Origin: Escherichia phage 4MG
Strand: one strand, 5' to 3'
Sequence record: NC_022968.1
Length of the DNA stretch: 64,000 nucleotides
Every line of letters starts with the position of its first letter. Position 1 is the stretch's first letter. Under the pieces are notes generated by a model. It ran no database searches. It saw only the letters and a program-made list of their open reading frames with translations, and was not told the origin of the DNA. Positions 4,145 to 44,923 of the stretch are shown here, piece after piece. The position numbers and the translations under genes are program-made.

Positions 4145-5827
4145 TTACAGTTGAGCGGCTGCTCGTTCACGAATCGTTGTCAGGTCTTCATCGACAATCA
4201 GTTTGCCGTTGTAGAACACACGACGCAGTTCGTTATCGTCAGACTGTACATCTTCAAGCTGACAATTGTCAATCAGTTCTAGCTGACCAAACATATTGCG
4301 AACAACCTTCAGGAAACCTTTTGCAGACTTCTTACCGAGGTCAGTCTTAGGTTCTTTGACAACCATGATCTGCTGACCATCAATAACCGCACCAGTTGCC
4401 TTCACAGCCATACCCAGTGAATCGCGGGTTGTGTACTGGGTAGTAAAGGAACCAACACCGTACACGATATTGCTGGATGCAAAGCCTTTATCTTTCAGAC
4501 GTTCAAAGATGTCTTTTGCACGAGCAACAGTGATAGAGTCACCGTAGATCAGGCCAACATGACTATCCAGAACTTTGTAACCCTTGGAGTTAACTTCACC
4601 ACCAAAGATTTCCCACAGACACTGGATTGCACCTTTGACTTCATGGTCTTGCAGATCGGAAGGCTCAAGATCAAGGTAATCCGTATCTTCATCGAATTCG
4701 ATGTTGTAATACTTACCTTTGACTGATACAACTTCACCTTTCTCGCTTTCCCATGCTGCGTCTTTGGCTTCAGACAGCGTTTCGAAATCACCAATATAAC
4801 GATACCCCGCAATGATATGTTCCGGAATGCCTGAATCAGGACGGAACACAACACGACCGTCACGAGCCATGATTTCTTCTTTCAGAATCAGTGCTGCACG
4901 GGTAATAATCGCCCAGAAGTCATAGCTGTCTGCTACGTAGGAAACAAAACCTTTCGGGAAAATTTCCGTGATGTAGCGTTTCAGGAATTCAACTTCAGCC
5001 AGGAAACGCAGTTCATCCAGGGACAAATCAGGATTTTCAGTTTTCAGGCGACCGACGATAAAGCCAATGTTAGTTGTTGCAACACTGTGTTCTGATGCAG
5101 GAATAGAACCAGCAACGAACTTACCTTTCATGTTGTAATAACGGTTCGCATACAGAATCGCAGGAATGGTATCTGTACCCATTGAGTTGATCAGTTGACC
5201 AAACTCACTCTGTGCCGCGTCGTGAGTACCAGATTCACCGCGATAAGCGAAGCAGTGGTTCTGGAACGGAACATGCAGGTTGTTATCACAAGTTTCGGCA
5301 GCGTATGCTTCAGACAGTTTGCGATACTGCCAGAAGGTAGTTGCAGTTGTGATGGTTTTCCATGTCTCTGCGGAGATCACGCTTTCCAGGAAGTTCGGCA
5401 ACCAGTAAAAATCAGGGTGCGTGTTCTGAATGGTGAACAGCGGAACCTGTACCGGGGACAGAGTGCCTTCAGGAATCGAACGGATTTCCAGTGGCAGGTA
5501 ACCAAGGTCATGCAGCTTTTCAAAGCCCCAGGTTTCAACCATGTCCGGGCCGATGCTCAGTTCACAAATTTCTTTGTACTGTGCGATAGCCGCTTTCTTT
5601 TTCATTTTGAAAAAGTTTTCGTTGAACAGGTCGATCAGGAACCATTTGATGAAACCTTGCAAGCCAGCCATCATCACACGCTGATCGTTATCAGCGAAGT
5701 GAATGAAGTGCTTTGCATTGCGTGGTGTCATGTTGTCCTGAACAATTTCAGAACGTCGGTCATACATGGAGATGTGTGAAGGTTTGTAAAAGTCAGCGAA
5801 TACGAGTGGGCTTTCTTTATGCAGCAT
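4145..5827 (-). CDS. nicotinamide phosphoribosyltransferase (NAMPT) family protein; candidate nicotinamide ADP-ribose transferase of an NAD+ reconstitution pathway
   Basis: 560-aa track ORF with AAGGAGA SD; NAMPT motif set FADFYKPSH, PLEIRSIPEGT, FTIQNTHPDFYWLPNF, AYRGESG, ASEHSVATT, VADSYDFW, FRPDSGIP. Confidence 0.88.
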   Translation of the reverse strand: MLHKESPLVFADFYKPSHISMYDRRSEIVQDNMTPRNAKHFIHFADNDQRVMMAGLQGFIKWFLIDLFNENFFKMKKKAAIAQYKEICELSIGPDMVETWGFEKLHDLGYLPLEIRSIPEGTLSPVQVPLFTIQNTHPDFYWLPNFLESVISAETWKTITTATTFWQYRKLSEAYAAETCDNNLHVPFQNHCFAYRGESGTHDAAQSEFGQLINSMGTDTIPAILYANRYYNMKGKFVAGSIPASEHSVATTNIGFIVGRLKTENPDLSLDELRFLAEVEFLKRYITEIFPKGFVSYVADSYDFWAIITRAALILKEEIMARDGRVVFRPDSGIPEHIIAGYRYIGDFETLSEAKDAAWESEKGEVVSVKGKYYNIEFDEDTDYLDLEPSDLQDHEVKGAIQCLWEIFGGEVNSKGYKVLDSHVGLIYGDSITVARAKDIFERLKDKGFASSNIVYGVGSFTTQYTTRDSLGMAVKATGAVIDGQQIMVVKEPKTDLGKKSAKGFLKVVRNMFGQLELIDNCQLEDVQSDDNELRRVFYNGKLIVDEDLTTIRERAAAQL

Positions 5828-8803: not shown

Positions 8804-9039
8804 GCAGACTTTCAAAGCTTCACAGACGAAAGAACATGCTGAAAGAAAAGCAGAAAAATATCACCGCAACTTTCCAAGTGTGCCGTGAAGCTATGAAGGC
8901 AAATCTGATAACGCCTTCACAGAGGCAGATTATCCGTGATATACTCCGGCCTGTGCTGCACGACCTGGAGGGCGAGGTTCGTGATGTTTTATGCCACATT
9001 CAAGAAGAACTTGAAAAATTAAATCAGGAGAATACATGA
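8800..9039 (+). CDS. hypothetical protein (79 aa)
   Basis: Track ORF; coupled start. Confidence 0.45.
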   Translation: MSRLSKLHRRKNMLKEKQKNITATFQVCREAMKANLITPSQRQIIRDILRPVLHDLEGEVRDVLCHIQEELEKLNQENT

Positions 9040-9629
9040 TCGACCACGTTACATCAGACACGCATTGGTGGCACACCAATATTCTGGGTTTTCCCTCGTG
9101 TGATAAATTCCGGAAAAACCTGTACGGTCCAAAGGAAGTCCGTGAAAGTCTGTATGCCATGAATGCTGGCATGATTGAAATCTGGAATAAGCACGTCAAA
9201 CCAGATGATGTCGTAGCACACCTCGGTGATTTCGTGATTGCTTACGGACGCTACATGGAGCCTCGCGTTCGTGACATCTTGGAAAAGATCAACGGAAAGA
9301 TCATTCTGGTTGGTGGAAACCATGACAACCGAGATACGAAACGTATCTTCCGTGAGTTTGGTCACGAAGTTGTTGATTATAAAGAGATTAACTTCAGCAC
9401 TGGAAAAGAGAAGGTGCATGTGTGTATGTCTCACTATCCGTTTGCATCGTGGAATAAAGCTCACCACGGGTCAGTTATGCTGCACGGTCATAGCCACGGC
9501 TCCTATACAGCCCCTGGTGGACGTATTCTGGATGTGGGTTGGGATGTACATGGTCGTCCTCTGACGATGCGTGAAGCCGTCCTGATGTGCCTTGAAAAAC
9601 CAATTTACACTGCTGATCACGGAGAATAA
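9036..9629 (+). CDS. calcineurin-like metallophosphoesterase (candidate RNA/DNA-end phosphatase)
   Basis: Track ORF 197 aa; motifs HLGDFV, GGNHDNRD, HGHSHG typical of metallophosphatases. Confidence 0.7.
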   Translation: MIDHVTSDTHWWHTNILGFPSCDKFRKNLYGPKEVRESLYAMNAGMIEIWNKHVKPDDVVAHLGDFVIAYGRYMEPRVRDILEKINGKIILVGGNHDNRDTKRIFREFGHEVVDYKEINFSTGKEKVHVCMSHYPFASWNKAHHGSVMLHGHSHGSYTAPGGRILDVGWDVHGRPLTMREAVLMCLEKPIYTADHGE

Positions 9630-9630
9630 T

Positions 9631-9987
9631 ATGCACAACAAAGTACGTAATTTCTTACCTAAGAAAACATCTAAGTCTTTTTATGCTACGATACACATTG
9701 CTGGGGATCTGGAATCAGCAAGACCATTGCTCCGTCAATGGACTATGCGTGGTGCTTGTGTACAACTAGTCGGGTGTGATTACATCTACACTGGCGGCTC
9801 TGAACGGGGTATGACAGTTCGCATCATGCAGTATCCTCGTTTTGAACGACCGGAGCACGAGATCCTTGAAATGGCGGTTGAACTTGCTAACTTTTTAGCT
9901 CAGGAACTCTGCCAGATCAGTTTCAGCATTGAAACTCCTTACAATACAACGTATTACCAAGCAGAAGGTTACGAAAAGCGATCATGA
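9631..9987 (+). CDS. hypothetical protein (118 aa)
   Basis: ATG after GGAG SD; frame of track ORF. Confidence 0.4.
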   Translation: MHNKVRNFLPKKTSKSFYATIHIAGDLESARPLLRQWTMRGACVQLVGCDYIYTGGSERGMTVRIMQYPRFERPEHEILEMAVELANFLAQELCQISFSIETPYNTTYYQAEGYEKRS

Positions 9988-10187
9988 AAATTCACAACAT
10001 AACCAAGGACAGGATTCATTTCATAATGGATTCAGGGGCTTACGGTTCAATTTCAAAGGTGGATGCCATGAAGTTTCTGTATGCTTCAAATATTCCTCAG
10101 GCAAAGCTTGACTCCCGTTCAGGAGAGTGTATTATTGACTCTATTACGAATACACAAGAACTGTGGGAGATATATCATGAAATTTAA
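9984..10187 (+). CDS. hypothetical protein (67 aa)
   Basis: Track ORF; coupled start. Confidence 0.4.
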   Translation: MKIHNITKDRIHFIMDSGAYGSISKVDAMKFLYASNIPQAKLDSRSGECIIDSITNTQELWEIYHEI

Positions 10188-11097
10188 CGTAGATGATCTG
10201 GTTGCTAAAAAGCTGGTAACCAAAAAGACTTACACCGAAGGCCCGTTCGCGGGTCTGTCTGTACTGAAATATAAGAACAATGTGTTCTGGGATAACCTGT
10301 GGCACACAGATGCGCGTCTGCTTGAGTGCCGTGGCATGGTTGTTGATGCAGAGGACAACGTTGTTATCTGGCCTTTCACGAAGATTTTCAATCGCTTCGA
10401 GAACAACACTGATGTCCCACAGGACAAGTTGGTGTGCGTACCTCGTAAAGTCAATGGCTTTATGGCAGCAATGAGTGTTTACAATGGTGAAGTAATTGTG
10501 TCTACCACAGGAACACTTGATTCTGAGTTTGCACAAATGGCAAAAGATAAGATCACTGGTTCCATGCCTGAAGGGATGCTTGACTATTTCGTGAAGAATG
10601 CTGGACCTTGCACACTTATCTTTGAAATATGTGATGAGAGTGATCCCCACATTGTCGCAGAAGAAGCGGGTGCTTATCTGATTGGTTGCCGGGTCCACTT
10701 AAGTGGTGGTATGCTTCCAGAGTGGGACCTTGATAGAGTTGCAAATCGTTATGGTTGGAAACGTGCTGACTGGGACAACATGATCTTCAGCGATGTTGTT
10801 AAGGCTTCCAAGTCAGTTAATCATGAAGGTTTTGTTGTTCGTGATGTTGACACCAATGAGCTACTGCTGAAAATTAAGTCTCCACATTACCTGGCGAAGA
10901 AGTTCCTGATGCGTGGTAGCCAGAACAAGTGGGACCTGATTTGGGACAACCCGAAAGAAGCCAAAAAACGTATCGACGAAGAGTTCTACGAACTTCTTGA
11001 CTGGCTGCGCTGGGCTTACGAAAAAGATGAGTGGGCGGCTAAGGACTCTCAGTATCGTCGTATGATTATTGAAAAATATTTTGAGGATCGCAAATGA
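10177..11097 (+). CDS. RNA ligase-like nucleotidyltransferase (Rnl2-like)
   Basis: 306 aa; covalent nucleotidyltransferase motifs KVNG (motif I), NHEGFVVRD (motif IV), LKIKSPHY (motif V). Confidence 0.55.
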   Translation: MKFNVDDLVAKKLVTKKTYTEGPFAGLSVLKYKNNVFWDNLWHTDARLLECRGMVVDAEDNVVIWPFTKIFNRFENNTDVPQDKLVCVPRKVNGFMAAMSVYNGEVIVSTTGTLDSEFAQMAKDKITGSMPEGMLDYFVKNAGPCTLIFEICDESDPHIVAEEAGAYLIGCRVHLSGGMLPEWDLDRVANRYGWKRADWDNMIFSDVVKASKSVNHEGFVVRDVDTNELLLKIKSPHYLAKKFLMRGSQNKWDLIWDNPKEAKKRIDEEFYELLDWLRWAYEKDEWAAKDSQYRRMIIEKYFEDRK

Positions 11098-11330
11098 CAC
11101 TCATGTCAATCAAGAACAAACTTGACCGGGCTGTTTCCATAATTACCAGACTTATCATTGGGTTATCTGTGTTTATCTTCTTATTTGCACTGATAATCTT
11201 TGTGAATTGGGTTATCGAAACTCTGGGTGGTAAAGTAATATTCGGTGGAATTCTGCTCATCATTGCGGTGATTGGCTGTTATGGTGTTGGATGTTCCATC
11301 TACCCACACAAAGAAAAGGGTGAAAAATGA
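11094..11330 (+). CDS. small membrane protein (78 aa)
   Basis: Track ORF; two hydrophobic helices. Confidence 0.45.
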   Translation: MTLMSIKNKLDRAVSIITRLIIGLSVFIFLFALIIFVNWVIETLGGKVIFGGILLIIAVIGCYGVGCSIYPHKEKGEK

Positions 11331-11671
11331 TCATCTGGCTTGATGACTTGAGAGACCCAAAAGACTACGGGTATCCTGATGCCTTGTGGTTCAAGACCTC
11401 TCAGAAGTTTATGGATTTTCTTGATAATCGGTCAAAGTTCTATCGTTATGTCACAGAGTGGCATTTTGATAATGACCTAGGTGAAGATTCAGAAAAGGAG
11501 GGCTATGACTGCCTACTGGCCTTGGAAGAGAAGCTTGTGTATGGGAAACTTCCTGTGCATGATGCTAAACTCTATGTCCATACGTCTAACCCTTCTGCGG
11601 CACAAAAGTTCATGCTTGCAAAAGAGAGCTTCTTGAAGTATCGTATCACGATCTTAAGAAACAATTACTGA
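11327..11671 (+). CDS. hypothetical protein (114 aa)
   Basis: Track ORF; coupled start. Confidence 0.45.
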   Translation: MIIWLDDLRDPKDYGYPDALWFKTSQKFMDFLDNRSKFYRYVTEWHFDNDLGEDSEKEGYDCLLALEEKLVYGKLPVHDAKLYVHTSNPSAAQKFMLAKESFLKYRITILRNNY

Positions 11672-11680
11672 GGAGAAGAG

Positions 11681-12088
11681 ATGGAAAAGACTCTGATCAT
11701 CCTGCGTGGTGTGTCTGGTGCTGGTAAGTCTACAGTAGCAGATATGCTGGCAGAGGATTTGTGGCCTGTCTATGAAGCAGATAAATTCCACTACACAGAA
11801 GATGGCGTGTACGACTGGAAACCTGAAAACATGCAGGCTGCACACGCATGGTGTCAGTCAGAGGTCAAAGATATGATGGGGTGGAATATCAGCAGGATCA
11901 TCGTATCTAACACCTCTACCAGTGAAAAAGAACTGAAGCCGTATCTTGATCTCGCAGCGGAGAACGGGTATCGTGTCATCAGCTTGGTGGTAGAAAACCG
12001 TCATGGCAATGACTCCATTCACAGCGTTCCGCAGGAAACCCGCGATGCTCAAGAGCGTCGTCTGCGTAACTCATTGAAATTACAGTAA
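11681..12088 (+). CDS. P-loop kinase, polynucleotide 5'-kinase-like
   Basis: 135 aa; Walker A GVSGAGKST at N-terminus; sits between RNA ligase-like and Sir2-like genes. Confidence 0.55.
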   Translation: MEKTLIILRGVSGAGKSTVADMLAEDLWPVYEADKFHYTEDGVYDWKPENMQAAHAWCQSEVKDMMGWNISRIIVSNTSTSEKELKPYLDLAAENGYRVISLVVENRHGNDSIHSVPQETRDAQERRLRNSLKLQ

Positions 12089-12098
12089 GGGGAAACAA

Positions 12099-12875
12099 TT
12101 GAGGCGTTTAATTGTTATTAGTGGTGCAGGCTTCTCTGCTGAAAGCGGTGTTCGTACATTCCGTACTGATACAGACTCCGGAAAGGCTTTGTGGGATGAG
12201 TACGACCTTGAAGAGGTCTGTAATATCCATGCTTTCCGTGGTAATTTCTATCACAAAACGCACATGTTTTATAACAAGCGTCGTGTAGAACTGCAAACTG
12301 TGCATCCGAATGCTGCACATATGCGTGTTGCTGAGTGGTATAAAAACTACCCAAAACAGGTTGTTAATCTGACGACAAACGTAGATGACCTGCTGGAACG
12401 TGCTGGTGTTCCTAAGGAAGATACTCTGTATATCCACGGATATCTGAAAGAACTTCGGTATAAACTTCACGAAGATTCTGAAGAGCAGTTAGTTGACATT
12501 GGTTACAATGAAGTAGATCCTGATGAATTTCACTGGTGCAAACCAAATGTGGTCTTCTTTGGTGAGGCTGCTCCAGCATATAACGACCTATACTCAACCC
12601 TAGATAGCCTGACATCTGAAGACATGGTGATTGTTGTTGGATGCTCAAACACAGTTATCAACTTCAACTGGGAGCTTTTCCCAGCATCAAGGATGGGTAC
12701 TAAGATTGTTGTGGTTAACCCTAATGTTCGCTACGATGAACAGTTGATGTACGAAGACGCTGGTGTTGTTGTATACCGAACTGGTGCTGTAGATGCGTTC
12801 AGCAACCCTGGTCTCATCAAAATGGTTGAGGATCACCTTGAAGGTAAAACCTCATTGCAGAAGAAGGAGAAATAA
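12099..12875 (+). CDS. Sir2-family (sirtuin-like) NAD+-dependent protein
   Basis: 258 aa, TTG start after AAGGGG SD; GAGFSAESGVRTFR NAD-binding signature, YIHGYL, VVGCSNTV, VVVNPN; no Cys4 zinc module. Confidence 0.7.
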   Translation: MRRLIVISGAGFSAESGVRTFRTDTDSGKALWDEYDLEEVCNIHAFRGNFYHKTHMFYNKRRVELQTVHPNAAHMRVAEWYKNYPKQVVNLTTNVDDLLERAGVPKEDTLYIHGYLKELRYKLHEDSEEQLVDIGYNEVDPDEFHWCKPNVVFFGEAAPAYNDLYSTLDSLTSEDMVIVVGCSNTVINFNWELFPASRMGTKIVVVNPNVRYDEQLMYEDAGVVVYRTGAVDAFSNPGLIKMVEDHLEGKTSLQKKEK

Positions 12876-14179
12876 TGTCAATTAGTTTAGACACACCAAC
12901 ACTATACGCCATTAACAAGGACGGATCGTATCAAGTTTGGAATGTAACCACAGAAGGTGATGAGGTTGTCGTTTCTTTCGGTAAGGAAAATGGAAAGATT
13001 CAACAAAAGCGCACCAAGTGTGAAATGAAAAACATTGGTCGTTCCAATGAAACCACCGCTGAGTTCCAGGCCGTCCTGGAGGCCCGGTCTAAGTGGGAGA
13101 AACAGGTCCGTTTAGGTTATCGTGAGACCAAAGAGGAGTTACAGACGGAAGAGAACTTCTCTCCTATGCTGGCACACGATGCGATCAAACGGTCAAAGTC
13201 AATCGTCTATCCTGCGTATATTCAGCCAAAGCTCGATGGTGTTCGTGCTCTTGTGACGCTTGACAAGGACGGCATCCCGGTGTTTAATAGCCGTGGCAAC
13301 AAAACATACCCAGTACAGGGCGCTTTATTGCAGCAAGTTAAAGAACTTGCAGAGCACACAGGGTTTGACAAGTTCGATGGTGAACTGTATATTCATGGTC
13401 TAAGCCTTCAGAAGATTGTTGCTTTGGCTAAGAAGTGGCGCACCCCTGAACAGATTGAAGCTGAGATCGAGAAAGACTATCAGGCTGATATCAAGCGCTG
13501 TAATAAGGCGGTTGCCGATGGTGAGCATCTCTGGAAAGACTTTGATGGTAATGTGTGGGCTGTTTCCACGTATAAACCAGTAAAAGACGTTGACCGCTTC
13601 AGTGGTTATTCCAGTCTTGACCTAGAGTATCACATCTTTGACATTCCTGTGAATGCACAAAGCCCTTGGTACTCTTATGAGCATGATAAGACCAGACATC
13701 AAGATCTGTTGGTGGTTGCCGATGCTGTTGAATGTGAACTTAACGTACCTATGGTGAAAGTTATCCACGGGATCGTGGTATCTTCTGAAAGGGAAGTTAA
13801 ATGGTCCATCGGTAAATACATGGAGCAGGGATTTGAAGGTTCAATCATCCGAAACTTCAAAGGTGTCTACGAATTTGGTCAACGATCCTCTGATCTCCAA
13901 AAATGGAAACAGTTCCAGGATGGTGAGGCAAAAGTTCTTGATTCTGTAGAGGATAAGAACGGTGAGGGTGTCCTGCTCTGTGAAGAAAGAGATGGTACTC
14001 GATTCAACTGCAAAATGAAAGGCACTCACGCAGAGCGTTCTCAGGCGAAGATGCTATTGTTGGTTGGCGATTTCATCAACTTTACATTCCAGTCGCGTAC
14101 TGATGATGGTGTACCTCAGTTCCCGGTGGGGCAGAGTGTACGTGAACTTGATACATTAACATGGGAGCCAGTATACTAA
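12875..14179 (+). CDS. ATP-dependent DNA ligase
   Basis: 434 aa; motif I KLDGVR, motif IV-like FEGSIIR; size typical of phage ATP ligases. Confidence 0.8.
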   Translation: MSISLDTPTLYAINKDGSYQVWNVTTEGDEVVVSFGKENGKIQQKRTKCEMKNIGRSNETTAEFQAVLEARSKWEKQVRLGYRETKEELQTEENFSPMLAHDAIKRSKSIVYPAYIQPKLDGVRALVTLDKDGIPVFNSRGNKTYPVQGALLQQVKELAEHTGFDKFDGELYIHGLSLQKIVALAKKWRTPEQIEAEIEKDYQADIKRCNKAVADGEHLWKDFDGNVWAVSTYKPVKDVDRFSGYSSLDLEYHIFDIPVNAQSPWYSYEHDKTRHQDLLVVADAVECELNVPMVKVIHGIVVSSEREVKWSIGKYMEQGFEGSIIRNFKGVYEFGQRSSDLQKWKQFQDGEAKVLDSVEDKNGEGVLLCEERDGTRFNCKMKGTHAERSQAKMLLLVGDFINFTFQSRTDDGVPQFPVGQSVRELDTLTWEPVY

Positions 14180-35388: not shown

Positions 35389-35393
35389 ATTAA

Positions 35394-35413
35394 CCCGCTT
35401 CGGCGGGTTTTTT
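35394..35413 (+). terminator. intrinsic terminator (CCCGCTTCGGCGGG + TTTTTT)
   Basis: UUCG tetraloop hairpin plus T-run right after stop at 35388. Confidence 0.6.
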
Positions 35414-35424
35414 CGTTTTTGTGC

Positions 35425-35453
35425 TTGACATCAATTTTACCGAGGATTATTAT
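35425..35453 (+). promoter_or_regulatory. sigma70-like promoter TTGACA-N17-TATTAT
   Basis: Hexamers read directly, just downstream of terminator; coordinates +/-2. Confidence 0.5.
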
Positions 35454-37042: not shown

Positions 37043-37305
37043 AAGTAACCGCGTTTTTAAAGTACGATTTATACCCGTACTACATTGTTCTTGAAGGGGA
37101 ACTCCAAGAGAACTTTGATGTGAAAACCAGTTGTGGAACCTATTCCCACACAAAAGTTCTGCGTGTTAAGCCTTTCTCTGAGTACGATTTACACTCTAAA
37201 ATACACAGAGATATCAAACAACAGCATGATCGTTGTCTTCGTAAATTAAAAGTTGACTTGTTGAAGCAAAATGGTATAGACTTCATCAACACAGAAAATT
37301 TCTAA
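37039..37305 (+). CDS. hypothetical protein (88 aa)
   Basis: Track ORF. Confidence 0.4.
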   Translation: MKVTAFLKYDLYPYYIVLEGELQENFDVKTSCGTYSHTKVLRVKPFSEYDLHSKIHRDIKQQHDRCLRKLKVDLLKQNGIDFINTENF

Positions 37306-37314
37306 GGAGAAAAG

Positions 37315-38568
37315 ATGAAAGTATATCTGGTAGGTGGCGCAGTACGTGACGGTTTGCTTGGTCGTGAAGTTCATGACCGTGACTACGTGGTTGTGGGTGC
37401 AACGCACGAAGAAATGATCAATAAAGGTTTCACCCAGGTTGGCGCTGCTTTTCCAGTATACCTGCATCCTGAAACCAACGAAGAGTATGCTTTGGCCCGT
37501 ACCGAGCGCAAGACGGGCAACGGTCATACAGACTTCGAAACATTCTTCAGCCCGGACGTGACTTTGGTTGAGGATTTGTCTCGTAGAGACCTGACGATCA
37601 ACGCTATGGCTAAAGATTTGGAAACAGGAGAGATCATCGACCCGTTTGGTGGTCAGTATGATATCGAAAAGAAAATTCTGCGTCATACAACGCTGGCATT
37701 CCTTGACGATCCTCTCCGCATCCTGCGTGTGTACCGATTCAAAGCACAACTGGGCAAAGACTGGGAAATCCATGCCGACACTAAAGCTCTGTGCTTTAAT
37801 AACCGTTATGGGCTGTCCCACATCAGCGGTGAGCGTAAGTGGAAAGAGATGGAGAAAGCCCTTGGTTCTGACAACTTCCGGGCATATGCTGAAGCAATGG
37901 CAGAGCTTGGTGAGTTGCCAGAACTGGATGCCCTGCGTGGAGTAGCACAACCACCAGAACACCACCCGGAAGGTGATGCTTTCGTTCATACACTGCTGTG
38001 TTTGGATGTGGCTGACCTTTACGAGGCTAACCCGTATACCAAATTTGCAGTGCTGTGCCATGACTTCGGTAAGGCGATCACTTTCCGTAAATACGGCAAT
38101 CTGATCGGGCATGAAGAGGCAGGTCTGGAACCAGTACGTACATTGTGTGAGCGTATCCGTGTGCCTAACGACTTCCGTGATGTTGCACTGTACGTAACAG
38201 AGCACCACACCCGTGTTCACTGTATCGCCCCTCGTGGCGGCAATAAGGGTGCAAAGCCACGGTCACTGATGAAACTGTTTGAGGCAGCAGGTAATGTGGC
38301 GAGCGCCAAAACAGCGATGAAGGTTGGTTCTTTGGCAGATGCGTGTTTCTGCGATGCAAAAGGTCGTGGTCCAACAAAAATTGCAGAGCCGTATCCGCAG
38401 GGTTATGTTCTGATGGATGCTTTCCGTTGCATGAAGGCTGTTGACACTAAGGTGATCTCTGCTGAGTGCCTTGCAAAAGGTAAGAGCGGTATCGAGATTG
38501 GTGAAGCTATTCGTGTTGCACGTATTGATGCTATCCGTAGCATCACCCAGCGTGAAATTAAGTGGTAG
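37315..38568 (+). CDS. tRNA nucleotidyltransferase (CCA-adding enzyme) with HD domain
   Basis: 417 aa; class II head MKVYLVGGAVRDGLLGREVHDRDYVVVG, RRDLTINAMA, and HD-type CHDFGK motif. Confidence 0.85.
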   Translation: MKVYLVGGAVRDGLLGREVHDRDYVVVGATHEEMINKGFTQVGAAFPVYLHPETNEEYALARTERKTGNGHTDFETFFSPDVTLVEDLSRRDLTINAMAKDLETGEIIDPFGGQYDIEKKILRHTTLAFLDDPLRILRVYRFKAQLGKDWEIHADTKALCFNNRYGLSHISGERKWKEMEKALGSDNFRAYAEAMAELGELPELDALRGVAQPPEHHPEGDAFVHTLLCLDVADLYEANPYTKFAVLCHDFGKAITFRKYGNLIGHEEAGLEPVRTLCERIRVPNDFRDVALYVTEHHTRVHCIAPRGGNKGAKPRSLMKLFEAAGNVASAKTAMKVGSLADACFCDAKGRGPTKIAEPYPQGYVLMDAFRCMKAVDTKVISAECLAKGKSGIEIGEAIRVARIDAIRSITQREIKW

Positions 38569-38576
38569 GAGAGACT

Positions 38577-39560: not shown

Positions 39561-39775
39561 CTATTGAACTTGTAATTTACCTGTGCATCGGTATACTGTG
39601 CATGGTCGCTGTAATAGCTGCTGATTGGTTCTTGGCAGATAGATTATCTGGACAAGGAATTGGTATTGGGCTGCTGGCTGTTGTGTTCTGGCCTTTATTT
39701 GGGATTTGCCTTATTGGTGGCCTGATAGCTGCCCTGTTTGAAGAAGATTTTGTAATCGCAAGGAGAAAGAGATGA
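39557..39775 (+). CDS. membrane protein (72 aa)
   Basis: Track ORF; two hydrophobic helices. Confidence 0.45.
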   Translation: MTIELVIYLCIGILCMVAVIAADWFLADRLSGQGIGIGLLAVVFWPLFGICLIGGLIAALFEEDFVIARRKR

Positions 39776-40260
39776 AGACACGCATGTACTGCGTAGTAAA
39801 CCAATATATTGCTGGCATCCATGCCGGGATTCAGTCGGCACACGCGATGTCGGAGATGTTCCTTGATTACTCTCAGCGCCGTAACAATGCCGGAAACCTG
39901 TTGTGGGACTGGGCTGATCGCGACAAGACCGTAATCGTGCTCAACGGTGGCTACCAGTCTTCATTGCAGGAACTATGTGAGAAACTGAAGCCTCTGAGCG
40001 GCACTTACCCTTGGGCTTCCTTCTGTGAGGAACAGGATGCCCTGAACGGTGCGATGACCGCAGTTGCTGTTGTGCTGCCTGAGTATATGTACTCACCGCA
40101 ATACGCAGAAGTTGTTGACTTGGTGAAATTACCAGGTTACAATCCACCACAAGTTGCTAATCAGTATCGTGACGAGATGGGAAATACCATCCACAACTAT
40201 ACGCAACCTGAAAAAGACCTGATCACAATGATCAAATCATTCCGACTGAAAGGAGAATAA
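39772..40260 (+). CDS. hypothetical protein (162 aa)
   Basis: Track ORF; no motif recognised. Confidence 0.45.
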   Translation: MKTRMYCVVNQYIAGIHAGIQSAHAMSEMFLDYSQRRNNAGNLLWDWADRDKTVIVLNGGYQSSLQELCEKLKPLSGTYPWASFCEEQDALNGAMTAVAVVLPEYMYSPQYAEVVDLVKLPGYNPPQVANQYRDEMGNTIHNYTQPEKDLITMIKSFRLKGE

Positions 40261-40776: not shown

Positions 40777-41114
40777 AAGACGTTCGTGGTGAAACCCTGA
40801 ATGTTGGTGATGAGGTTTATATCTACTGGGGGTATAACCAATTGCGCCCAGCCGTGGTAAAGCAGATCACTAAAAACAAGGCCAAAGTGTTTTGTGACGG
40901 GTCACTCTCCAAATGGAAGTCAGGTGAGTGCATGATCAAGGCAGAAGAACCAACAGGCTACTACCCTGACGAGGTGATCATGCTTCTTGAAGAGATTCGT
41001 CGTATTCGGGATGAGGCTCCGATGAATAAAGAGGGTCTTCCAACAAAACAACTGTGCCAGGGGCTTCTGAATTTTTGGGATATGAAGCGCCCAATGAAAC
41101 TGGTTACCTCTTAA
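40773..41114 (+). CDS. hypothetical protein (113 aa)
   Basis: Track ORF. Confidence 0.45.
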   Translation: MKDVRGETLNVGDEVYIYWGYNQLRPAVVKQITKNKAKVFCDGSLSKWKSGECMIKAEEPTGYYPDEVIMLLEEIRRIRDEAPMNKEGLPTKQLCQGLLNFWDMKRPMKLVTS

Positions 41115-41122
41115 GGAGAGAT

Positions 41123-42196
41123 ATGAAAACTTTTGATATGATGCGATGCTACTCAGGTAGCCTCGCGTATGGGACTAATCTCCCAACATCGGATGTTGAT
41201 ATCCGTGGTCTGTTCTGTGCGGAACCTAAGTTCATCCGTACTCCATTCTTCAATATCAAAGAGCAGACGCTCGCTGATGAAGAGGATGGTAAGATCTACG
41301 AACTGACAAACTTCATGAAGTTGTTTGTGGAGATGAACCCCAACATCATCGAACTGATGTTTGTTGATGAAAAAGATATCATTTCCAGTTCAGACGCTTA
41401 CGCATACCTGCGTACAATGGCACCTGAGCTTATGTCAAGTAAGGTTGCATTTAGCTTCTCTGGTTATGCTATGGCACAGCTTAAGCGTATCCGTGGTCAT
41501 GATAAGTGGATCACCAATCCGCAACCGGAGGAAAAGCCAACGCAAAAGGACTTCTTCCGTTTAGTCCACAACTACAGTGAGCACCCTTTCCTTGCTGGTG
41601 TAATTAAGCACGAACGCTTCATGGAGGCCATGACAAATCTGAACGATATGTGCGTCCTCGTTCCTTATGGCAACGACATCTATGGTGTGATGGAGAACTT
41701 CAGTAGCTCAGGTATGTTCAACGCAGATGGTTCTATTCGTCATGTTGACTACCAGCAACTGTCTGATACAGACAAGCGCCGGAAACCTGTGTTCATTGTA
41801 AAGTATCTGGCAGAAGAGCACAAACAGGCAAAGGAGAAGCACCGTAACTACTGGGCCTGGAAGCAGAACCGTAACGAAGTGCGTCATCAGCTTGAAGTGA
41901 ACTTTGGGTACGACACCAAACACGCCATGCATCTTGTACGTCTGATGCGCATGGCTGAAGAGATCCTGACTGATGGAAAGGTTCTGGTGAAGCGTCCTGA
42001 CGCTCAAGAACTCTTAGATATCCGTGGTGGCAAGTGGACTCTTGACGAGCTTCTTAAATGGGCTGATGAAAAAGATCATTACATTCGCGAAGTTCTGTAC
42101 AAAAAGACAGACCTGCCGAAGTACACCGATCTTGAGTTAGCTTCTCGTGTTCTCATGACAGCGCAGGATATCTGCTGGGCGAGTATGGATGTTTGA
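41123..42196 (+). CDS. polymerase-beta superfamily nucleotidyltransferase of unknown specificity
   Basis: About 357 aa; GSLAYGTNLPTSDVDIRGL fits the G[SG]-x(9-13)-D-h-[DE] nucleotidyltransferase signature; helical C-terminal domain. Confidence 0.6.
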   Translation: MKTFDMMRCYSGSLAYGTNLPTSDVDIRGLFCAEPKFIRTPFFNIKEQTLADEEDGKIYELTNFMKLFVEMNPNIIELMFVDEKDIISSSDAYAYLRTMAPELMSSKVAFSFSGYAMAQLKRIRGHDKWITNPQPEEKPTQKDFFRLVHNYSEHPFLAGVIKHERFMEAMTNLNDMCVLVPYGNDIYGVMENFSSSGMFNADGSIRHVDYQQLSDTDKRRKPVFIVKYLAEEHKQAKEKHRNYWAWKQNRNEVRHQLEVNFGYDTKHAMHLVRLMRMAEEILTDGKVLVKRPDAQELLDIRGGKWTLDELLKWADEKDHYIREVLYKKTDLPKYTDLELASRVLMTAQDICWASMDV

Positions 42197-44418: not shown

Positions 44419-44897
44419 TTAGACTGTTTGTAAAAGACACCAGCCACGAGGTGATAAGCAAACTCCCCGGAATATCTAGTGCTGTTGCACAGGTAAAGTC
44501 CGGGGTTTGTGGGGCAATTGTTTTTGTCGTGAAGTCAAAACACAACATTGATTCTGAAGGCATACTCAATCCAAGATTGGTTATCACAAAGAGTGCTGGT
44601 AAGAATGAGCAGATATTTATGATAGCCACGAGTAAGGATGAGAAGATTTGGATTCATCCGGACGAAGTTTTCATTGGTAACACCCAGGTCTACAACCGGG
44701 ACATGTTCTTTGATGCTTCTGCTCCAACTGAGGAAGAAGTCCAAATGCTGAGAATGGCTAAAGGTGCGGATTTGGATGCCCTTATGAAGGCATTTGGGAA
44801 AGTCCCCGGAAGGATTATGGAAAGGATAATGTCCGGGACTTTTGTGGAAGAGTACACAGCGGTAACCAAAGAAAAGGTAATCGTTTTAATGGGATAA
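44403..44897 (+). CDS. hypothetical protein (164 aa)
   Basis: Track ORF. Confidence 0.45.
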   Translation: MQDEMIRLFVKDTSHEVISKLPGISSAVAQVKSGVCGAIVFVVKSKHNIDSEGILNPRLVITKSAGKNEQIFMIATSKDEKIWIHPDEVFIGNTQVYNRDMFFDASAPTEEEVQMLRMAKGADLDALMKAFGKVPGRIMERIMSGTFVEEYTAVTKEKVIVLMG

Positions 44898-44923
44898 CCC
44901 GCCTTGAGCGGGTTTTCTTTTAT
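44896..44923. terminator. bidirectional intrinsic terminator (AACCCGCCTTGAGCGGGTT flanked by A-run and T-run)
   Basis: Hairpin sits between convergent genes 44403-44897 (+) and 44920-45234 (-). Confidence 0.5.

Follow-up and report, generated by a model that had tools for sequence, protein, structure and literature searches.

A stretch of 64,000 nucleotides from Escherichia phage 4MG (NC_022968.1), hereafter the window, carries on its plus strand, at positions 37315–38568, an open reading frame (ORF) for a protein of 417 amino acids that is designated cca here. Judged from its sequence, cca is very probably a functional phage copy of the bifunctional Cca of gammaproteobacterial type, which would maintain the acceptor ends of tRNAs during infection. 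Its product can be described with high confidence as a full-length tRNA nucleotidyltransferase of class II to which an HD phosphohydrolase domain is fused, as in the Escherichia coli enzyme. All of the sequence and fold comparisons are consistent with a class II CCA-adding enzyme, and it is by this homology that we infer its enzymology.

Identification of the cca product

The cca reading frame starts with an ATG that lies five nucleotides 3' of the Shine-Dalgarno sequence AAGGAG (37304–37309, plus strand; read from the sequence), which itself overlaps the TAA stop codon (37303–37305) of the preceding ORF. The protein comprises a nucleotidyltransferase head (approximately residues 1–145), an RNA-binding neck (151–199), an HD phosphohydrolase domain (approximately 206–352) and a C-terminal helical tail. 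A preliminary description of this DNA had taken the protein for a CCA-adding enzyme of class II that carries an HD domain, on the strength of the strings GGAVRD, DRDYVVVG and RRDLTINAMA and of an HD-type motif. These are present as described, at residues 7–12, 21–28 and 90–99, together with the HD motif CHDFGK at residues 248–253, and the assignment is now strongly supported by Pfam, NCBIfam, PHROG, alignment with E. coli Cca, individual residues and the predicted fold.

In Pfam, the matches to the PolyA_pol head (PF01743; 7.5e-21), to PolyA_pol_RNAbd (1.5e-5) and to HD (4e-5) all lie above the gathering scores. The NCBIfam model PRK10885 (NF008137, 'multifunctional CCA addition/repair protein') aligns at 8e-123, with residues 1–413 of the phage protein matching positions 1–406 of the 409 in the model, and PHROG 2244, 'tRNA nucleotidyltransferase', matches at 1.3e-145. 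Furthermore, the Cca of E. coli K-12 (b3056) is colinear with the phage protein over 413 residues, with 43% identity, and the two have the same length, domain order, motifs A–E and HD residues. They differ in the first residue of motif D, which is aspartate in the phage protein (DDPLR) and glutamate in E. coli Cca (EDPLR), and by a 6-residue insertion around residues 305–312. The CCA-adding enzyme of Bacillus stearothermophilus (PDB 1MIV) shares the head and neck fold and the catalytic motifs (phmmer, 3.8e-22; Foldseek); its sequence alignment to the phage protein ends at approximately residue 207, and neither it nor other solved class II enzymes possess an E. coli-type HD phosphohydrolase domain that is active.

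The predicted structure agrees with this assignment. AlphaFold, given an alignment of 53 sequences, yields a confident model with a predicted local distance difference test score (pLDDT) of 93.2 and a predicted template modelling score (pTM) of 0.90. When this model was compared with the PDB using Foldseek, the top 46 matches were all class II tRNA nucleotidyltransferases, with E-values down to 1.5e-14, and the C-terminal half was found to be weakly similar to the HD protein PhnZ.

Conservation of catalytic residues and purifying selection

Conservation was scored in an alignment with 119 homologs; a second alignment, A1, comprised 53 sequences. Motif A (GGAVRD ... DRD; 37333–37383, plus strand) is invariant in 119 of 119 homologs, at residues G7, G8, R11, D12, D21 and D23, where D21 and D23 are the metal-binding carboxylates. 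Across the same homologs, motifs B (RRD; R90, R91 and D92), C (DPxxG..D; D109, P110, G113 and D116) and E (ERxxxE; E173, R174 and E178) are invariant or nearly so. Motif D ((E/D)DxxR), which the homolog alignment places at DDPLR (37705–37719, plus strand) and which is the nucleotide-selecting template, has invariant D132, R135 and R138. In the HD domain, H217, the H249–D250 dyad (38059–38064, plus strand; located by Pfam and alignments), H266, H298, H302 and D347 are all invariant in the homolog alignments.

Of the 55 close phage homologs, 47 have aspartate at the first position of motif D; most cellular homologs have glutamate there, and aspartate also occurs in 6 of the 47 homologs with less than 50% identity, the group that contains the cellular enzymes. 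The glutamate-to-aspartate change was therefore rejected as a sign of altered specificity, being a conservative polymorphism that also occurs among distant, mostly cellular-type homologs.

In class II enzymes, a flexible loop between motifs A and B is required for the addition of A76, and this loop is shortened in CC-adding enzymes. In the phage protein, the loop (residues 56–75) aligns without gaps to that of E. coli Cca. Within it, E57, Y58 and R62 do not vary among the members of the close phage clade and E64 is invariant in alignment A1, while T63 is nearly so.

Relative to the orthologs of Cronobacter phage GAP31 and Enterobacter phage EC152, the ratio of nonsynonymous to synonymous substitution rates (dN/dS) of cca is 0.03, with a dS of approximately 0.68. 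As the ratio is equally low in the halves that contain the head and the HD domain, both of the predicted activities appear to be under purifying selection. Antisense to cca lies a GTG-initiated ORF of 324 amino acids (37246–38220, minus strand), which is most likely a shadow ORF of this strongly constrained plus-strand gene.

Distribution and origin of cca

Together with a surrounding block of 24 kb, cca has approximately 88% DNA identity to GAP31, EC152 and Escherichia phage LNA4, which belong to the genus Seunavirus of the Vequintavirinae and have genomes of approximately 148 kb; the window is itself assigned to this genus. At the amino-acid level, the product is 97% identical to the GAP31 and EC152 orthologs and 87% identical to that of PVP-SE1. 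The tRNA nucleotidyltransferases of the Vequintavirinae (GAP31_120, PVP-SE1 gp159 and EC152 WZX10630.1; PHROG 2244) are orthologs that occupy the same genomic position, and the records of GAP31, EC152, PVP-SE1 and LNA4 annotate the syntenic gene as 'tRNA nucleotidyltransferase' or 'CCA tRNA nucleotidyltransferase'. A protein of 99% identity is already present in the public protein collection.

Overall, a tblastn search recovered 468 phage records with a cca homolog; the match spans at least 80% of the query, and hence includes the HD half, in 203 of them, whereas many phage homologs align over the N-terminal half of the query only and leave the HD half unmatched. The gene class is thus already known, being annotated in hundreds of phages, and phage CCA-adding enzymes have been discussed as RNA-repair genes in comparative studies (PMC7162821, PMC7824862, PMC7344957).

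The closest named cellular homologs are not enterobacterial but are enzymes of Pseudoalteromonas, at 48% identity. Set against the 43% identity to E. coli Cca, this rules out a recent capture of the host gene.

A conserved neighbourhood of cca, a Pth2-like gene and an RlaP gene

Downstream of cca on the plus strand lie two further genes with a possible role at tRNA ends. The first, a conserved neighbour of cca at 39772–40260, encodes a protein of 162 amino acids whose model has the fold of peptidyl-tRNA hydrolase 2 (Pth2). This likeness arises from the comparison of folds: the Pfam match to PF01981 scores 18.4 bits (E = 0.0025), under the gathering cutoff of 23, and neither phmmer nor a family profile found Pth2 among the PDB sequences. 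The invariant residues of the family are K52, T53, E86 and T96. The second, at 41054–42196, 2.5 kb downstream of cca, encodes a nucleotidyltransferase of the RlaP (RNA ligase-associated Pol-beta) family, as shown by matches to PF10127 (1.9e-13) and PHROG 388 (5.7e-78) and by a GS...DVD motif; translation probably starts at an internal ATG, at 41123.

The linkage of these genes recurs elsewhere. After dereplication, a Cca homolog was found within 10 kb in 13 of 44 Pth2-like lineages and within 2 kb in 7 of the 44, and in the unrelated Rheinheimera phage Barba8S the cca homolog and the Pth2-like gene form an overlapping pair. The order cca, Pth2-like gene, RlaP is also present in contigs of the size of rV5. 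In two of these (L082 and L083) the RlaP homolog has 699 amino acids, being approximately twice as long, and in L084 it has 353; this suggests a fusion or an insertion, possibly of an intein or homing element, in some relatives.

Consensus scans offer candidate limits for the transcription unit. A terminator-like hairpin (35392–35409) is followed directly by a sigma-70-like promoter (35425–35453), the two spanning 35392–35453 on the plus strand. This promoter reads TTGACA-17-TATTAT, with 11 of 12 consensus matches, and the pair is a candidate start of cca transcription. The next strong terminator-like hairpin on the plus strand, at 44896–44914, is a candidate end of a unit that would hold cca, the Pth2-like gene and RlaP.

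Directly 3' of cca lies an ORF of 158 amino acids (38562/38576–39038, plus strand) that belongs to PHROG 19588, a group of unknown function; its likely start is the ATG at 38576, which is preceded by GGAG. GAP31 and EC152 lack this ORF at that spot, where a gene of 68 amino acids comes after cca, and it looks like a small lineage-specific insertion. On the scale of the window, the GC skew flips sign near 8 kb and near 54–56 kb, coinciding with switches of the coding strand, and at 54–56 kb, the end of a long block of plus-strand genes, the GC content drops to 0.41.

RNA-repair genes elsewhere in the window

An RNA-repair set had been mentioned in the preliminary description, and such a set is present: it consists of a metallophosphoesterase, an Rnl1-like ligase, a P-loop kinase and the RlaP nucleotidyltransferase. 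The first three lie approximately 26 kb from cca, all on the plus strand. The calcineurin-like metallophosphoesterase (9036–9629) has DxH and GNHD motifs and is a candidate 3'-end healing phosphatase. The Rnl1-like RNA ligase (10081–11097; probable start 10177) was identified through PHROG 562 (5.7e-65) and a KVNG nucleotidyl-lysine motif; a Pfam search gave no match for it. The small P-loop kinase (AAA_33; 11681–12088) has the Walker A sequence GVSGAGKS and a weak match to a polynucleotide-kinase PHROG.

These genes form part of a plus-strand block (9036–14179) that also encodes a SIR2-family protein and an ATP-dependent DNA ligase, and, taken together, the kinase, the phosphoesterase and the ligase are reminiscent of a Pnkp/Rnl system for healing and sealing that has been split. 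At approximately 4.1–7.2 kb, on the other strand than the SIR2 block, are genes for the salvage of nicotinamide adenine dinucleotide (NAD), encoding nicotinamide phosphoribosyltransferase and ribose-phosphate pyrophosphokinase. The presence of SIR2 next to the repair genes, along with NAD salvage, hints at NAD-related counter-defence.

tRNA genes and proposed role of the phage Cca

The window holds two tRNA genes, tRNA-Lys(CTT) at 2032–2107 and tRNA-Met(CAT) at 2802–2878, both of which lie on the minus strand and encode their own 3' CCA; an Rfam scan of the window gave these two tRNAs alone. The preliminary description had spoken of only two or three tRNA genes, which holds for the window but is no guide to the phage genome: ARAGORN finds 25 tRNA genes in each of the closest relatives, EC152 and GAP31. 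Position 1 of the window corresponds to position 65640 of EC152, where the main tRNA cluster occupies 65818–69329, approximately 180 nt outside the window. The argument from few tRNA genes to a need for end maintenance was consequently dropped, as it depended on where the window happens to end.

A CCA is encoded in 24 of the 25 tRNA genes of EC152 and in 23 of the 25 of GAP31. The one conserved exception in both relatives is tRNA-Ser(GCT), the gene for which ends in ..UCC; tRNA-Ser(TGA) begins with its first G immediately afterwards, with no spacer between the two, and A76 must therefore be added after processing. This locus lies outside the window, at 5583–5764 of L005 (EC152) and 8332–8512 of L006 (GAP31), and its arrangement recalls the dimeric tRNA precursors of T4 that require CCA addition.

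From the sequence, fold, conservation, purifying selection, synteny and linkage observed above, we infer which reactions the protein catalyses, on which substrates it acts and how the phage benefits. For E. coli Cca, a mechanism with two activities, nucleotide addition and phosphohydrolysis, is established. By homology, the N-terminal Pol-beta-type head of the phage protein would restore missing C74, C75 and A76 at the 3' ends of tRNAs and need no nucleic-acid template to do so, with motif D (D132 and R135) selecting CTP or ATP, and the C-terminal HD domain would strip 2',3'-cyclic, 2'- or 3'-phosphates to leave a 3'-OH for extension. The enzyme would thereby most likely maintain the acceptor ends of tRNAs, those of the host as well as those of the phage, in a chargeable state during infection. 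Its gene probably shares a host-type promoter with those of the Pth2-fold hydrolase and RlaP, and the three would form a cluster for the maintenance of tRNA acceptor ends in which the Pth2-like protein could clear peptidyl or acyl groups from blocked tRNAs and RlaP could replace further nucleotides that have been lost. These last two roles were proposed for jumbo phages by Iyer et al. (PMC7824862).

Several observations weigh against this interpretation. Despite its full-length coverage, the cca product scores 410.2 bits with PRK10885 and does not reach the equivalog cutoff of 451 bits, so that strict equivalence to the E. coli-type Cca is not established; from its sequence, the protein appears to be a divergent relative rather than one of another architecture, and the most fitting name for it is a divergent Cca of a phage lineage. 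The boundaries of the putative operon come from consensus scans only. In 31 of the 44 Pth2-like lineages there is no nearby Cca, and the cluster is therefore not obligatory. Finally, the host has a Cca of its own, which makes the phage gene a second copy whose benefit is not accounted for.

Alternative explanations

The same head domain occurs in class II nucleotidyltransferases of other specificity, and the PDB fold matches include CC-adding, A-adding and poly(A) polymerase enzymes, which raises the question as to whether the phage protein might instead be a poly(A) polymerase, add only CC or only A, or tag host tRNAs with CCACCA for decay. Such an activity is most improbable. The models for poly(A) polymerase I (PcnB) align over the shared head domain only and score far under their cutoffs (TIGR01942, 66 against 305.65 bits; NF008634, 35 against 702 bits), the flexible loop is conserved and gapless to that of E. 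coli Cca, and the phage protein shares with this enzyme both the HD domain and the order in which the domains follow one another. The model scores and the intact loop together rule out a poly(A) polymerase or CC-adding identity. A different possibility is that the enzyme serves the maturation of the phage's own tRNAs, needed where their genes lack an encoded CCA, as with some tRNAs of T4. The 25 tRNA genes of the relatives and the absence of A76 from tRNA-Ser(GCT) in both EC152 and GAP31 would favour such a need; nevertheless, it is an unlikely explanation, as nearly all of the phage tRNA genes, including both in the window, encode the CCA, and the host Cca could supply a single A. Apart from the conserved exception of tRNA-Ser(GCT), a dependence on Cca through CCA-less phage tRNA genes was thus largely rejected. 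Moreover, certreviruses with one or two tRNA genes retain the enzyme: Pectobacterium phage CB7 keeps its tRNA nucleotidyltransferase with a single tRNA gene (PMC7344957), and phiTE has a tblastn match. That nearly all phage tRNA genes encode the CCA and that CB7 keeps the enzyme with a single tRNA gene suggest that the main substrates are probably host tRNAs.

A further reading is that Cca, perhaps with the Pth2-like protein and RlaP, is dedicated to counter-defence and mainly reverses damage done to tRNA acceptor ends by immune systems or toxins, such as cleavage of the CCA tail by nucleases of the Cas12a3 type or the action of acceptor-stem nucleases that leave cyclic phosphates. This would be a specialisation of the maintenance role and not an alternative to it. 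Two papers of 2026 report that Cas12a3 cuts the CCA tails of tRNAs, arresting growth and blocking phage spread, and one of them notes that viral tRNAs are unable to circumvent tail cleavage and that a viral countermeasure is unknown (PMC12851939, PMC13594972). Cleavage of the tail is thus now a demonstrated antiphage mechanism, which makes the counter-defence reading more credible. The co-occurrence of cca with RNA-repair genes, the purifying selection on an end-healing HD domain that is left unmatched in many phage homologs, and the probable targeting of host tRNAs in CB7 all point in the same direction, and the same idea has already been proposed for jumbo phages (PMC7824862). Conversely, the literature searched yielded no paper in which a phage Cca is put to the test against a defence system. 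Cas12a3 often also takes off the discriminator base (PMC12851939), which Cca cannot restore; the host's own Cca would carry out this repair in any case; and the carriage of tail-cutting systems by the Enterobacteriaceae hosts of this phage group is conjectural. Sequence cannot decide between housekeeping and counter-defence. A counter-defence role is plausible and consistent with the data without being shown by them, and as the dominant function of the gene it is possible but doubtful.

An extension of this idea is that cca, the Pth2-like gene and RlaP form a dedicated module that resets the acceptor end and lets these phages escape systems that cut, block or extend the CCA tail, among them Cas12a3-type nucleases, acceptor-stem RNases and toxins that acylate or nucleotidylate tRNAs. 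In such a module Cca would contribute both the healing of the end, through its HD domain, and the new CCA, while acyl or peptidyl groups would be removed by the Pth2-like protein and a lost discriminator base would be put back by RlaP. This proposal is speculative and, on balance, rather unlikely.

Implications

Phage CCA-adding enzymes are routinely annotated and have featured in comparative studies since approximately 2011, and the gene as such changes nothing. Taken as a whole, the interpretation given in the preliminary description, that the phage would maintain tRNA 3' ends and so counter nucleases of the host or of defence systems, is partly supported, and its functional hypothesis was already in print (PMC7824862). 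What is added here is a correction of the premise on tRNA number, the finding that an account based on missing CCA is largely untenable, and documentation of the recurrent linkage of cca, the Pth2-fold gene and RlaP.

The closest parallel is the tRNA repair system of T4, in which Pnkp and Rnl1 act against the PrrC anticodon nuclease and which is likewise a phage-encoded means of restoring damaged tRNA; like T4, the window carries an Rnl1-like ligase, a kinase and a phosphoesterase. However, the T4 system heals and seals the anticodon loop, while Cca rebuilds the 3' acceptor end in an untemplated manner, and a counter-defence role is proven for T4 repair but only hypothesised for the phage Cca. 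If the proposal of a reset module is true, phages would have in this module the 'yet unknown' means by which viruses counter the cleavage of CCA tails. The phage group provides a well-conserved and genetically tractable candidate for testing a counter to immunity that targets the CCA tail. Should the cluster be shown to protect against tail-cutting defences, the Pnkp/Rnl1 model of tRNA repair in T4 would extend from the anticodon loop to the acceptor end.
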